From: a phage
Assembly (NCBI GenBank): GCA_019566835.1
Contig: GCA_019566835.1_3045.2
Reading direction: 5' to 3' (one strand)
DNA length: 35,772 bases
Positions 13,786-30,768 of the stretch are shown piece by piece (positions within the stretch are counted from its first letter, which is position 1; every line of letters begins with the position of its first letter). The position numbers and the translations under genes were made by a program. The notes under the pieces were generated by a model. The model was not told the DNA's origin. It ran no database searches and saw only the letters and a list, made by a program, of their open reading frames with translations.

Positions 13786-15963
13786 TTAGGCCGCAAGGGC
13801 CTTCATAGTTTTAGCGATTTGAGAAACTTCATCATCACTTAAAGAGTTGCGATATCCGATGAAGTCGGAAACAATACGGAATTTCTTGGTAAACTCAGCA
13901 ACCATTTTATCACTGTTTTTTGAAGCATTATTTGATAATACATCAAAAAGATTAGTTACTGTCCAGATGTCATGACCGATGGTATCTTTTCCACCATTAA
14001 AATATACACCGCGCAATGAACTAACTATATTAGCGAGTCGTGTATATTCTTCAGAAACTTCATCTGTACTGAAGTACTTCATCATAAAATCTAGTTCAGG
14101 ATACTTGATAATTTTATCAATATATCGTTGAGCTGAACTTGAATAACCTACATACTTATCATAATCTACATCATCAAAAGCATCTACATATAAATCACGC
14201 AAAGCTTCAAAAATACATTGGCACTGACCGAGTTCTTTTACCTTTTTCTGTAAAAGCGGACGAATAACATAAAATTCATTAATGCCAATAAGATTAGCCA
14301 TACGAATCAAAATATTCATAGATGGATGACAAAGTGATGTAGTACCATCCATAGAGAAAATATCAGAACGATGCATATACGCTACATAACCAGTAATTTC
14401 ATCTGCTTCTGACGTAAGTGTAAATAATTCCTCTTTTTCCCAACGCCCATCTTTAATTTCAAACTTAAATGCTGTAGCAGCTTTAGGACGAGGAGCTTTA
14501 CTTTTAACTACCTTTGGAATATAGCTTTTAACTAAAGCTTCAATTTCTGACAAATAATGAATGTTAACTTCATCACTTTCAAACATTGCCATAATATCAG
14601 GTAGTAAATCAATCTGCGATTCTACTTCTGGATTAATAAACAGAAGACGCTCATTATGATGAATATTTAAGGTGTTATTAAATTCGCTATCATCTAATGC
14701 ACGTGCTAATCCACGGACAATATTAACGCGATTTTTAATATTATCAATAACAATATTAATTTTTGTCGTATTAATACCAAACAGACGATAGCTTGATGCA
14801 ACGGCTGAAGTTTCATGACTTTGCTTAATGCGTTTCAGTCGAGGGTCAAGATTTACTTCATACACAACTCCTGCATTGCATAACTTACTGTCAGGTTCAA
14901 ACATGCTCTGCATCTTTTTATATGACAGATTTTTAGTCGTGAATTTGACCGAATTACTAATCATATAATCTCGAGCAGAATACCCCATCTTCATTAATTC
15001 GCGATATGTATGACGAGGAGATGTAGATTCTTTAAATCGTTTTACATCTTCATTAAATGCTTTCTCACTGAGTTCTTTAACTCGTTCAATAATATTTTTA
15101 CGAGTGCGATCATCTAGTGAAAGAGCCTCGCGAGATGGAGCAATATCAAGTGAACCCATTGGAAACTTAATGTAATTCACTTCATTGCGAATGCTTAGCC
15201 AGTTACGCTCTCTAATAACACCATCGATAGGATAAACAATACCACCATAGATAGCATATAATCCACCACGATCAGGCCAGTATCTTTCTGGATTTACACC
15301 GTAATAGTCATCAAAATCCGGAAAATAATCAATTTCGCGGTCAAGACCATTAATGATAGCCAAATCTTTGAACGGTCGCATGATATAAGAAACTTCATAA
15401 GCAAAGTTTCTAAAGTCTTTTTCTTCAACTGGAACTACGATTTCAATACCAGTTTTATCATCTGGACCCATTTCTTTCACGAATGTAGGTTTAATTTGTG
15501 GACCATCGCCATCCATGTAAGCTACATAACCACGAATTTCACCTTTATGATACGAAGTAATACTAAATGTATCAGTATAACTAAACGGAGATTTAGAACC
15601 TAAACCAAATCCGCCAATGAAATCGTTAGATTCAGCCTTAGATGAACTGAAGTATGAATTATACAAACCAGGAGAATTATCATCACCCTGAATATCAAAA
15701 TCACTCATACCCGGACCAAAATCTCGGCAAACAAATCGTGGATCTAAACGTCCAGGAACTTGAATGATAAATTTTTCAGGATTTCCATTGAGAGCATGGG
15801 CATCAATCATGTTGGTAATCAATTCACGGACTACTGCGCGAATCTTGTTTGTATACAAATCAGACGACAGAATTTTAAATACTTTAGGAGATGCTGTGAT
15901 GCTAAATGCTTTCGATTTAGAACCATTACCAAGAATTGTTTCTTTTTCAGTGGTGATAATCAT
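13786..15963 (-). CDS. rIIA: rIIA protein
   Basis: 725-aa ORF adjacent to rIIB; T4 rIIA length and position. Confidence 0.9.
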
Positions 15964-27171: not shown

Positions 27172-27354
27172 TTATTTTGCCCAGGGAGCCCAAGGCGGAG
27201 GGTCAAGATGGTATGAAGCTAGTTCTTCTAGAAGAGCATCTGGGGCTTCAATTCCATAATTCTGTAATACTATACGGTACTCTTTCTTATAATCACTAGA
27301 ATCATTCTGGTTATTCGTAGAATGATTATCTTCTAACATCTCAAATAAATCCAT
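27172..27354 (-). CDS. Hypothetical protein (60 aa)
   Basis: Acidic ORF ending PPPWAPWAK. Confidence 0.5.
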   Translation of the reverse strand: MDLFEMLEDNHSTNNQNDSSDYKKEYRIVLQNYGIEAPDALLEELASYHLDPPPWAPWAK

Positions 27355-27362
27355 ATTAATTC

Positions 27363-27833
27363 CTAGCGATAAAAACCAAAGTGACGATTAGCTTCAATGA
27401 TCTTTCTTTCTTCTTCGGACATTCTCCAGCGTAGTCCAACATCAAAATGAGCCCAGACCATCCTAACAAATGCATTTATATCTTTAATATCTTCAATAAT
27501 GAATGTTTTACTTTTAGAAGGTTGACTCGCTAATTTAACTTTATCGTCTTCAAACATGTCAAAAAGACCATATTCATGAGCTCTTTTATAGCCTTTAATA
27601 GTTAAAGCTTCAGAAGAAGAAAATGGTGAATCTGTATTCTGCAAAATATCTTCAGTATGCTTTATAATTAGAATAACATTTTCTGGATATTTTCTTTCTT
27701 TTATATCTTTAATTAAAATATCCGGATTTTCTGCTAAAGGAATAATTAACGAGCATTTTTTATCAAGTGTATTTACTGATTTACCTTCTTTAGACATAAA
27801 TTCTATTGAATATAATTTTGCTACTTCAATCAT
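27363..27833 (-). CDS. Hypothetical protein (156 aa)
   Basis: ORF tiled with neighbouring genes. Confidence 0.65.
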   Translation of the reverse strand: MIEVAKLYSIEFMSKEGKSVNTLDKKCSLIIPLAENPDILIKDIKERKYPENVILIIKHTEDILQNTDSPFSSSEALTIKGYKRAHEYGLFDMFEDDKVKLASQPSKSKTFIIEDIKDINAFVRMVWAHFDVGLRWRMSEEERKIIEANRHFGFYR

Positions 27834-27834
27834 G

Positions 27835-27990
27835 TTATTTCCTTTTGCCTACTAATGGACCGTCAGGAATTTTGTTTTCCTGAATGTATTTCTCATTTTC
27901 TTCCATCATTTTACTACCGATTTTAAGAAGCAAATCCATTGCTTCATTTGCTTTAGCCTTTGCCTCTTCTAACGTCATATCTTTGGTCAT
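27835..27990 (-). CDS. Small hypothetical protein (51 aa)
   Basis: [51 protein letters not shown]; ATGA overlap with the upstream stop. Confidence 0.4.
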
Positions 27991-28190
27991 GATTTATCAC
28001 CATAGATGTCTCTCATCAATTTAAGCGCTGAGCGTTCTAATTTCTTTTCTTTCTCAGCACTAATCATTGATTTCATCCATTCTTCTGACTCGTTCTGCAT
28101 TTCTTTATTTGCCTGTTCAACCCAACCATCATCAATATACATTGAGTTTGGTCTATTGAACCATTCAAGCATTTTCTTCAGAACTTTCAT
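27987..28190 (-). CDS. Hypothetical protein (67 aa)
   Basis: ORF with a weak SD; overlaps the upstream gene by 26 nt. Confidence 0.45.
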
Positions 28191-28650
28191 TTGTTTTACC
28201 TAAAACGATAGTATGGACAGCGTCAAATTCATGAATTTTTAGCAAATTAGGATTTAAATTATTCCATAAAGAGGTAATAAAATATGATAGCGCACTTTCG
28301 TCCGTAATTATAAATTTATTTCCTTTATCTATTTTCCAATCATATATTGAATCGTATGAATAGAAGGATAACGGTTTATTATTATAGTATGCTTCAGCAA
28401 CATCAATATAGTTAGATTTAGTAAATGCTTGAATTGCCATAAATGGAGAATTTTGTACAGTTTCAATAATTCCGATCTTTTTAAGTTTTATTTCAACATC
28501 TTCTGGAACTGGCATTGAAATAAAATCTTCTACTAGATACATGTCATTGTCATATCTTTTATCAATCATTACTGCTACTGTAATTGGAACATCCTTGACA
28601 AACGCCATACTAATACTATTGATAGACATTTCAAACAAAATCGCTTCCAT
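28165..28650 (-). CDS. Hypothetical protein (161 aa)
   Basis: Start taken at [10 protein letters not shown] with SD GAGGAAAATT. Confidence 0.65.
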
Positions 28651-28658
28651 AATTTTCC

Positions 28659-29000
28659 TCAATCACAAGATGTAGATGAACAACTAGAATCACAAGAACT
28701 TCCACATGAATCGCCCGTCCATACATGAACAGGAACATTGGTGTCATATGAATCAGAACTAGACTGTGTATTCTGTGCATTAGATGATGTAGTAGGTACT
28801 GACCAGCGCCAAGGATTTTTATAATATTCTTGGGCTTCTTCATAAGTCATAGTAACTGCTTCTACTGTTCCATCTCCCATATAAACATACTCAACTACAG
28901 TTAAAGGAAGGTAGTCATTTGAAATAGGAACTACACCTTCTCCCGGAGTTGTAGAGAAAAAATCTGTAAAGAAATTTTTAAACCAATTAAATATAAACAT
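28659..29000 (-). CDS. Hypothetical protein with cysteine/serine-rich C-terminal tail (113 aa)
   Basis: N-terminal aromatic hydrophobic segment [15 protein letters not shown]; C-terminus [18 protein letters not shown]. Confidence 0.6.
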
Positions 29001-29206
29001 TACAAAAAGCCTCTTTTGAATTCGACTTGCTTATCGCCATAATCATATCGAATCTCTGCATTAAATTCGACAGAACCATCTGCGTACATCATAAATGAAT
29101 GCACAACAACTTCTGTGGACCATGGCTGCAGTTCATATTTCTTCATTACATGCCGTGAAATGATAATATCTAAATCTTCATTTGGTTTAATCCAACGATT
29201 TAACAT
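29000..29206 (-). CDS. Hypothetical protein (68 aa)
   Basis: SD GAGGAG, directly downstream of an early promoter. Confidence 0.6.
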   Translation of the reverse strand: MLNRWIKPNEDLDIIISRHVMKKYELQPWSTEVVVHSFMMYADGSVEFNAEIRYDYGDKQVEFKRGFL

Positions 29207-29232: not shown

Positions 29233-29262
29233 ATTATACCACACTCATTTTGATATGTAAAC
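29233..29262 (-). promoter_or_regulatory. T4-type early promoter
   Basis: Minus strand reads GTTTAC, 18 nt, GTGG-TATAAT. Confidence 0.6.
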
Positions 29263-29264
29263 TG

Positions 29265-29298
29265 CAAAAACGAAAAAAGGAACCCCGAAGGATTCCTT
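29265..29298 (-). terminator. Rho-independent terminator downstream of soc
   Basis: Minus strand reads AAGGAAUCC-UUCG-GGGUUCCUU (9-bp stem, UUCG loop) followed by UUUUUUCGUUUUU. Confidence 0.7.
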
Positions 29299-29577: not shown

Positions 29578-29787
29578 TTAAATTACATGATTATTTATAA
29601 TAAATTCTCGCGGAACGTTAAAATATCCGATTTTAGTTAATATAACAACATCACCGTTAATAATTACCGGAGAATAATCTTCTGGAGTGTTAAATTTCCA
29701 ATGGGATCTAATATTATATCCATCAGAACCAAATGCTCGAGTAGCCGGTCTCCCGGCTTTTTGCCACGCGTAGAAATCAAATTTCAT
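29578..29787 (-). CDS. Hypothetical protein (69 aa; soc.1-type ORF)
   Basis: Small ORF between soc and gene 56. Confidence 0.55.
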   Translation of the reverse strand: MKFDFYAWQKAGRPATRAFGSDGYNIRSHWKFNTPEDYSPVIINGDVVILTKIGYFNVPREFIINNHVI

Positions 29788-29978
29788 TTTGAATGCTCTA
29801 TAATTAATTTTAAAGCTTCTTCACTGACAAAAATTTCGTCAGGACCTTCTATAACTTCAACCATACGAAGTTGATTAGTTAAGAGCTCACATACGAGCTC
29901 CTTGTTATAATCTTTAAATAGCTGGTCAATACGTTTCTTATGGGCTTTCTTAAGCTGACGCTTATTTAAACGAGCCAT
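29784..29978 (-). CDS. Hypothetical protein (64 aa; soc.2-type ORF)
   Basis: Small basic ORF overlapping both neighbours by 1-4 nt. Confidence 0.55.
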   Translation of the reverse strand: MARLNKRQLKKAHKKRIDQLFKDYNKELVCELLTNQLRMVEVIEGPDEIFVSEEALKLIIEHSK

Positions 29979-30567: not shown

Positions 30568-30768
30568 ATGGTACAAAAATTAATGGCACTTGTTAATGCC
30601 ATAAAAGGTAATAAAAAACGTATAGCTTTTACTATTTCTGCTATGGTAGGAATTTTACTCTGGAACTTTATTTTATCACCAATTGCAATTGCGCATGGTG
30701 TTAATATTCCAGTAGTTACTCTTGATACATTTGTAGATTTAGCATTTGCTTTAGTTGGGTTGATTTAA
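30568..30768 (+). CDS. Plus-strand small membrane protein (66 aa) in the 56-61 gap
   Basis: Consensus SD AAGGAGG 4 nt before the ATG; hydrophobic product; fills the gap exactly, with its stop overlapping the gene 61 stop. Confidence 0.5.
   Translation: MVQKLMALVNAIKGNKKRIAFTISAMVGILLWNFILSPIAIAHGVNIPVVTLDTFVDLAFALVGLI

Follow-up and report, generated by a model that had tools for sequence, protein, structure and literature searches.

The T4-like phage protein Mrh.1 (DUF7206) ends in an invariant two-cysteine tail, a candidate metal-binding claw

The small open reading frame that a first-pass annotation had singled out for its cysteine- and serine-rich C-terminal tail, within the window (the whole 35,772-nucleotide stretch of phage DNA analyzed here), is almost certainly, judging from its sequence, the orthologue of T4 Mrh.1, a member of the Pfam family DUF7206. 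The gene is already known: it has stood for decades in the annotation of the T4 genome and has a Pfam entry. What we add is a family-wide definition of how the protein ends, with a dual S-C-D motif at the C terminus and a strict amino acid composition, which replaces the vague description of a "Cys/Ser-rich tail." We tentatively propose that this tail is a metal-chelating claw of thiolates and carboxylates on an accessory protein of host takeover, a possibility that we would sooner expect to fail than to hold. If such a metal- or thiol-directed tail effector exists, it would be a new mechanism of T4 host takeover and would explain a widely conserved DUF.

The frame is on the minus strand and runs from an ATG through 113 codons to a TGA stop, so that the 113-aa product first assigned to 28659-29000 is confirmed. 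The product matches PF23836 (DUF7206) with an E value of 7e-30 and 104.2 bits against a cutoff of 25.6, placing residues 3-113 on profile positions 1-107, and it matches phrog_2031 with an E value of 1e-33; the corresponding gene of phage AR1 is annotated mrh.1. The T4 protein (T4p027, 14685-15026, UniProt P20706) is also 113 aa long and is identical to the window protein at 109 of 113 residues, tail included, with S9N, T68V, T75A, and A95T the only substitutions in the window protein relative to T4. The two genes are likewise alike in lying between mrh.2 and mrh, in the order soc - mrh.2 - mrh.1 - mrh, and in belonging to an early transcription unit. Since T4 carries mrh.1 in the same place and with this degree of identity, the earlier statement that the frame has no counterpart in this neighborhood of T4 was wrong. 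No discussion of the function of Mrh.1 or DUF7206 was found in the main texts searched.

The window is a segment of a Tequatrovirus (T4-like) genome that leads from the tail-fibre genes through an early region to uvsX. Around mrh.1, the minus strand carries primase 61, dCTPase 56, two small ORFs, soc, mrh.2, mrh.1, mrh, srh, modA.4-.2, and modB, and the single-strand synteny of soc - mrh.2 - mrh.1 - mrh/srh - modA.x - modB is found both among the window ORFs and in the annotations of AR1, T4, and AV122 (Table 1). The stop codon of mrh.2 shares bases with the start codon of mrh.1 (TAATG, 28998-29002), which indicates translational coupling, and a similar stop/start overlap recurs in distant relatives (loci L008, L010, L012, and L015). 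At the other end of the gene, the mrh Shine-Dalgarno sequence GAGG (28656-28659) overlaps the mrh.1 stop codon. The promoter of the operon, an 11/12 match with an extended -10, sits upstream of mrh.2 and just past the soc terminator; in Yersinia phage fPS-90, a "predicted early promoter" is annotated at the corresponding place.

Table 1. Features of the mrh.1 region, in window coordinates
Feature	Coordinates	Strand	Basis
mrh.1 CDS (T4 mrh.1 orthologue; Pfam DUF7206)	28659..29000	-	ORF list, PF23836, phrog_2031, AR1 annotation, T4 identity
Mrh.1 C-terminal tail, residues 96-113	28662..28715	-	Codon read-out; family S-C-D ... S-C-D-COOH
Mrh.1 residues 62-95, variable indel-rich Ser/Thr/Asn/Gln linker	28716..28817	-	pLDDT 41-47, predicted disordered
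Mrh.1 residues 34-52, predicted beta-hairpin, E-Y-x-Y-M-G-D-G-x-x-E-x-V motif	28845..28901	-	AF2 strands 34-40, 46-52
Mrh.1 residues 1-15, predicted aromatic amphipathic helix	28956..29000	-	AF2 helix at residues 4-15
mrh (PF24070 T4_MRH), immediately downstream of mrh.1	28165..28650	-	PF24070, E 4e-41
mrh.2, 68 aa, upstream of mrh.1	29000..29206	-	phrog_1873, E 1.5e-36
mrh.1 Shine-Dalgarno AAGAGG, within the 3' end of mrh.2	29010..29015	-	Sequence
Sigma-70-type (T4 early-like) promoter of the mrh.2-mrh.1-mrh operon	29233..29261	-	TTTACA, 17 nt, TATAAT, upstream TG
Intrinsic terminator after soc, upstream bound of the transcription unit	29277..29298	-	9-bp stem, then T-run
Mrh.2 / Mrh.1 / Srh, genes with similar amphipathic starts	29000-29206 / 28659-29000 / 27987-28190		Relatives: loci L008, L010, L012, L014

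The tail of the window protein comprises 18 residues, with 8 Ser, 3 Asp, and cysteines at tail positions 4, 8, 12, and 17; the count of six cysteines given in the first-pass annotation should thus read four. Even so corrected, it is the only site with at least 4 Cys in 18 residues in the approximately 11,000 codons of the window ORFs, and when the window proteome was shuffled 2000 times, no 18-residue stretch with at least 4 Cys and at least 6 Ser arose. Tail statistics were taken from 114 full-length protein clusters that represent at least six groups of T4-like phages. The usual family tail consists of S-C-D, then 4-10 Ser/Gly residues, and finally S-C-D-COOH, with a Cys-Cys spacing of 4 to 10. 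The T4-lineage tail has been expanded to four cysteines, the last two of which are those of the family-wide motif. Exactly two Cys occur in the last 25 residues of 108 of the 114 clusters (two clusters have three), and 104 of 113 members have no Cys anywhere outside the tail. The final two residues are Cys-Asp in 112 clusters and Cys-Asn in 2, and the penultimate cysteine is followed by Asp in 99/114. Taken over the 114 clusters, Ser makes up 45% of the final 20 residues, Asp 17%, Gly 15%, Cys 10%, and Tyr 8%; Thr accounts for 1%, and H, K, R, E, Q, M, L, and I never appear. The net charge of the tail is -3 or -4, and the terminal carboxylate comes on top of this. Both tail cysteines are retained at 228 of 228 cluster positions, with no substitution. 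Cysteine is one nucleotide away from serine, in a tail that is rich in serine, and this complete retention therefore argues that it is thiol chemistry that has been selected and not the size or polarity of the side chain.

A tail of such simple composition might be an artefact, the product of a frameshift or of noncoding, low-complexity read-through, and a second frame is indeed open across it (ORF 28631-28843); a few database entries are also frameshifted or truncated (P0005, P0006, P0010, and L007). The DNA record leaves this reading almost no weight. A 121-nt stretch covering the tail and the start of mrh is present at full length, with at least 90% identity and ungapped tail DNA, in 482 of 484 Tequatrovirus records, and the 114 clusters, which span several genera, keep both the frame and the tail, so that neither of the two doubts attached to the original annotation, a frame not conserved in relatives or a tail created by a sequencing frameshift, is borne out. 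The linker varies in length by multiples of three nucleotides, so that one query span corresponds to 228, 234, 237, or 240 nt. The S-C-D-stop codons vary synonymously only, with TCN exchanged for AGT at Ser, TGT for TGC, GAT for GAC, and TAA, TAG, and TGA all used as stops, and this synonymous variation is confined to the mrh.1 frame. Four kinds of sequence follow S-C-D-stop in different relatives (the mrh Shine-Dalgarno, the srh start, promoter-like sequence, and another Shine-Dalgarno); given these differing contexts and the synonymous variation, conservation must act on the protein and is not imposed by a downstream ribosome-binding site. Conservation, shuffles, and synonymous pattern together lead us to reject both a frameshift and chance low complexity. 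The second open frame (minus strand) would encode 70 hydrophobic residues and, according to the synonymous sites, is not the selected one; the frameshifted call in phage ERS-1 (P0006) reads into it.

How far the family extends depended on the method of search. Single-sequence HMMER against 1.84 billion representatives returned 11 matches, two of them spurious Ser/Thr-repeat proteins, so the wider family was reached only by profile search, which recovered about 120 protein clusters, almost all of them with PF23836, the exceptions being the truncated fragments P0004 and P0122. Named profile matches come from T4-like phages of Escherichia, Shigella, Salmonella, Enterobacter, Serratia, Cronobacter, and Edwardsiella, and tblastn adds phages of Yersinia, Klebsiella, Citrobacter, Kosakonia, and Erwinia; in all, at least 776 phage records contain a tblastn match to the family, and nearly every genome has a single one. 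No cellular homologue of Mrh.1 was found in one genome per species from 185,579 bacterial and archaeal species. By these sequence searches, DUF7206 is a phage-only family of the T4-like phages of Enterobacterales, and this restriction, together with the lack of a cellular homologue, suggests that the target of Mrh.1 is probably encoded by the host.

The gene can also part from its usual surroundings. In Serratia phage PS2 (a Muldoonvirus; NC_024121.1 6147-20479, locus L020), the DUF7206 gene lies between 56 and a Mod-like gene, and soc, mrh.2, and the T4_MRH family are all absent from the 7 kb on either side. The family therefore persists independently of its usual neighbors, and the idea of an obligatory partnership with Mrh or Mrh.2 is weakened accordingly. 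Exchange within the gene is evident as well. Yersinia phage fPS-90 (L018 269-763) and E. coli phage 235Ecol030PP (P0003) encode a 164-aa mosaic Mrh.1 in which T4-type residues 1 to ~92 are followed by an RB69-type middle (MEEIIRQPEKAGN...AVSSW) and then, in frame, by a four-Cys T4-type tail, which points to recombination between lineage-specific versions with the frame of the tail retained. A further database entry, P0007 (ENA, a 647-nt contig), predicts a 150-aa protein in which mammalian-repeat-like sequence is joined to the start of mrh.1, and it is almost certainly a chimera of metagenome assembly.

Mrh.1 is a small, acidic, mostly disordered protein composed of four modules: a helix, a hairpin, a variable linker, and the invariant tail. 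AlphaFold2 models, built with a 114-sequence alignment for the window protein and for one RB69-type relative, are of low confidence overall (pTM 0.28 and 0.19), and both predict an N-terminal helix, one beta-hairpin, a further helix, and a disordered C-terminal half. The hairpin around EYVYMGDG (pLDDT 77-87) is the sole confidently folded element and also appears in the RB69-type model; its invariant or near-invariant columns are E37, Y40, G42, D43, G44, E47, and V49. Residues 62-113 have a pLDDT below 50. In RB69-, PS2-, and PEi20-type relatives, as in the 164-aa mosaic, the place of the linker is taken by an unrelated sequence. The window protein has all three of the family motifs, namely the amphipathic helix, the E-Y-x-Y-M-G-D-G hairpin, and S-C-D...S-C-D-COOH. 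The best Foldseek match in the PDB had an E value of 2.2, a profile search of PDB sequences gave no match, and the PADLOC models of anti-phage defense and counter-defense matched no family when applied to the window protein and two distant relatives.

The N terminus was correctly described at the outset as aromatic, with 8 aromatic residues among the first 15. Its hydrophobic moment is 0.5-0.6 in the window protein, and amphipathicity is a property of the family (median muH 0.68, with 80% of members exceeding 90% of their own shuffles). From this we infer that the helix docks on a membrane or on a partner. A signal peptide or transmembrane anchor is rejected, as the maximal 19-residue Kyte-Doolittle mean is 0.84 where at least 1.6 is required, and it is 0.24-0.73 in three distant relatives. 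With no transmembrane segment or signal peptide and an amphipathic start, Mrh.1 should be cytoplasmic or peripheral in location. Similar amphipathic starts are seen in three small early neighbors, Mrh.2 (MLNRWIKPN), Mrh.1 (MISWLKNLFKTKP), and Srh (MKPLSWLKDWLDRP), and could reflect a shared docking helix or chance. In hhalign comparisons, the Mrh.1 family resembles Srh weakly over the N-terminal 37 columns (probability 36%); homology of Mrh.1 to its coupled neighbor Mrh.2 is rejected (probability 0.15%).

Large-scale studies of T4 give some indication of how much the gene matters. In the supplementary data of one study, T4 mrh.1 RNA is classed as early, and the protein is among those undetected by mass spectrometry in infected cells (PMC9697503 supplement). 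Mrh.1 contains only three Lys/Arg, and its sequence predicts tryptic peptides of 8, 53, 4, and 48 residues; this scarcity of tryptic sites and the two long peptides may explain the nondetection. The gene falls within the dispensable 39-56 region (PMC8262927), and supplementary transposon-sequencing data class it as nonessential, with insertions at all 31 of its TA sites (bioRxiv 10.1101/2025.11.20.689424 supplement). In the one condition comparison considered from the same preprint, transposon mutants had no phenotype, and its main text leaves mrh unmentioned (bioRxiv 10.1101/2025.11.20.689424). In the supplementary tables of the genome-wide CRISPRi-ART screen, knockdown of mrh.1 is scored "Semi-Fit" (score 0.79, p 0.069), which makes mrh.1 one of only five T4 genes of purely unknown function that the screen marked as contributors to fitness, with mrh, mrh.2, srh, and soc listed as "Not Fit" (PMC11879866 supplement). 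At that p value, the fitness effect of mrh.1 is marginal. The early RNA, the saturation of TA sites, and the "Semi-Fit" knockdown together argue for an accessory role.

How might such a protein act? We tentatively favor metal ligation by the tail. Under this proposal, Mrh.1 would be a nonessential accessory protein of host takeover, expressed early, with a helix and hairpin that would provide docking, either on a partner or on the inner membrane. The tail, flexible and anionic, would then offer two Cys, 3-4 Asp, and the terminal carboxylate as ligands (four Cys in the T4 lineage), and this claw might chelate a metal ion itself, perhaps as a dimer, or ligate a metal or thiol center in a host protein that enterobacteria have in common. 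The appeal of the proposal is that Cys-Asp pairs, the exclusion of Glu, Thr, and basic residues, a free carboxylate, and a flexible linker are all put to use, which makes ligation of a cation or metal the simplest chemistry to account for every feature. The likeness to metal-binding or redox peptides remarked on in the first-pass annotation gains strength from the two invariant cysteines, mostly paired with Asp, in a wholly anionic Ser/Gly/Asp tail. Several observations weigh against metal binding. Two Cys per chain are few for a stand-alone site, which would need dimerization, Asp ligands, or the metal of a partner; His is absent, and classical CxxC or CxC spacings do not occur beyond the T4 lineage; and an acidic neighbor raises the pKa of a thiol, which fits a nonmetal role as well. 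The marginal fitness effect, the lack of a phenotype in transposon mutants, and the nondetection of the protein count on the same side.

Known thiol peptides offer partial parallels. Phytochelatins, (gamma-Glu-Cys)n-Gly, and metallothioneins share with the Mrh.1 tail an alternation of thiol and carboxylate in a flexible, His-free, anionic peptide, and the T4-type tail has 4 Cys in 14 residues with Ser spacers. In contrast to both groups, most members of the Mrh.1 family have 2 Cys and no CxC/CxxC clusters, and the tail, whose metal binding is putative, is made on the ribosome and attached to a 90-aa docking region. Mrh.1 does not show the metallothionein pattern of many conserved cysteines in CxC/CxxC clusters: the window tail reads CX3CX3CX4C, and 108/114 relatives have 2 Cys spaced 4-10 apart. 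With only two cysteines in most members, the family as a whole cannot be read as metallothionein-like on the strength of the T4-type tail.

A more specific version of metal ligation, which we regard as improbable, would make DUF7206 a "thiol-warhead" pseudo-substrate that inhibits a host metallo-enzyme, or else a metallochaperone or metal sponge acting early in infection. As an inhibitor, Mrh.1 would sit on the inner membrane or a host complex, parked there by its helix, and the tail would thread into the metallo-enzyme so that the terminal Cys-Asp-COOH could ligate the catalytic metal, much as a cysteine switch or a captopril-type inhibitor does. Candidate targets would be FtsH, a Zn-protease of the membrane, or some other Zn/Fe enzyme shared by Enterobacterales; as a metallochaperone or sponge, the protein might instead reroute the metal pool of the host. 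An inhibitor of this type would represent a previously undescribed class of phage inhibitor. Sigma-32 is a substrate of FtsH, and mrh and srh, the neighbors of mrh.1, were named for effects on sigma-32. The FtsH inhibitors lambda CIII and B. subtilis SpoVM, along with membrane-targeting helices of the MinE/MreB type, resemble Mrh.1, an early phage protein, in being small or in having an amphipathic helix. Unlike CIII, which has no Cys-Asp tail, Mrh.1 carries its helix at the extreme N terminus, and its acidic, Ser-rich tail is unlike the known nonpolar degrons of FtsH. Homology to CIII is rejected (hhalign probability 0.13%, with the CIII query verified against lambdoid phages), and the FtsH idea is therefore an analogy only.

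The tail can also be read without any metal. An invariant extreme C terminus with a free carboxylate, borne on a disordered linker, is what would be expected of a short linear motif that fits the pocket of a partner, either an Mrh-family or a host protein; Mrh.1 might even resemble a cargo with a C-terminal targeting peptide that is encoded beside its shell gene, Mrh being the assembly. In keeping with this variant, recombinant Mrh elutes as an assembly of megadalton size (PMC8076793), and genomes of the T4, RB69, and PEi20 types, as well as two T4-like contigs from metagenomes, have a T4_MRH-family gene one or two genes downstream. That adjacency is weak evidence, since T4-like synteny is conserved in blocks, and PS2 keeps the tail with neither a T4_MRH nor an mrh.2 gene nearby. 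Moreover, a motif recognized through shape and hydrogen bonds would allow Cys to become Ser, a change that is never seen in the tail. We consider metal-independent docking unlikely, if still plausible. The cysteines might instead cycle between dithiol and disulfide, the tail serving as a decoy or shuttle for host thioredoxin or glutaredoxin or forming a mixed disulfide with its target. Exactly two cysteines in 108/114 clusters, and four where the tail is of T4 type, all on a flexible C-terminal stretch, are in keeping with such an arm, and a loop of 4-10 residues would allow a disulfide to close within one chain. Class I RNR R1 (CX4C tail), MsrA (recycling Cys), thioredoxin reductase (GCUG), and MerA (Cys pair) likewise have a near-C-terminal Cys pair on a disordered tail. 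The arms of those enzymes, however, serve their own catalytic domain, whereas Mrh.1 has no enzyme domain; acidic neighbors and the lack of basic residues disfavor a reactive thiol of low pKa, two clusters have three Cys, and without an export signal the protein would face the reducing cytoplasm. A redox-active arm strikes us as rather unlikely.

Least probable among the functional readings, and very unlikely in our estimation, is that the tail is an enzyme substrate or decoy, either covalently modified (by RiPP-like chemistry, phosphorylation, ADP-ribosylation, or ester/thioether cross-links) or soaking up a modifying enzyme of the host. The composition of the tail does resemble that of RiPP cores, with a subthreshold match to the FxLD lanthipeptide precursor TIGR04363 (E 0.034), and the ADP-ribosyltransferase genes modA/modB lie 1.5-3 kb downstream. 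The TIGR04363 score of 14.1 bits nevertheless falls far short of the cutoff, which is 30. The 35.8-kb counterpart of the window in AV122 has 69 annotated features, none of them a lanthipeptide synthetase, YcaO, radical-SAM, or ATP-grasp gene, and the neighbors identified in the window itself are Mrh, Srh, ModA.x, ModB, Soc, and gp56. The near absence of Thr is unlike a lanthipeptide or graspetide core. Membership among RiPP precursors thus failed on both score and maturase. T4 Alt, ModA, and ModB are described as arginine-specific, which we also count against a substrate or decoy role. Metal ligation remains the reading that we prefer, at the tentative level given above.

Several minor observations concern the surrounding genes. 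ModA.3 (27363-27833, minus strand) is a paralogue of Mrh, as both match PF24070 T4_MRH and phrog_1234, and T4-type phages therefore have two Mrh-family genes; RB69-type phages have one, a ModA.3-like copy, and are without mrh proper. The modA.2/.3/.4 genes (window 27172-27990, minus strand) are mislabelled in OR352952.1 (AV122) and NC_055723.1 (fPS-90) as the periplasmic ModA of a molybdenum ABC transporter, an error that is a collision of gene names. Relative to T4, the window is without segF and dam. Between soc and 56 (29578-29978, minus strand) are ORFs of 69 and 64 aa that match phrog_5773 ("head protein") and phrog_5782 ("virion structural protein"), and between 56 and 61 (30568-30768, plus strand) a hydrophobic 66-aa ORF, matching phrog_2024, lies on the opposite strand.
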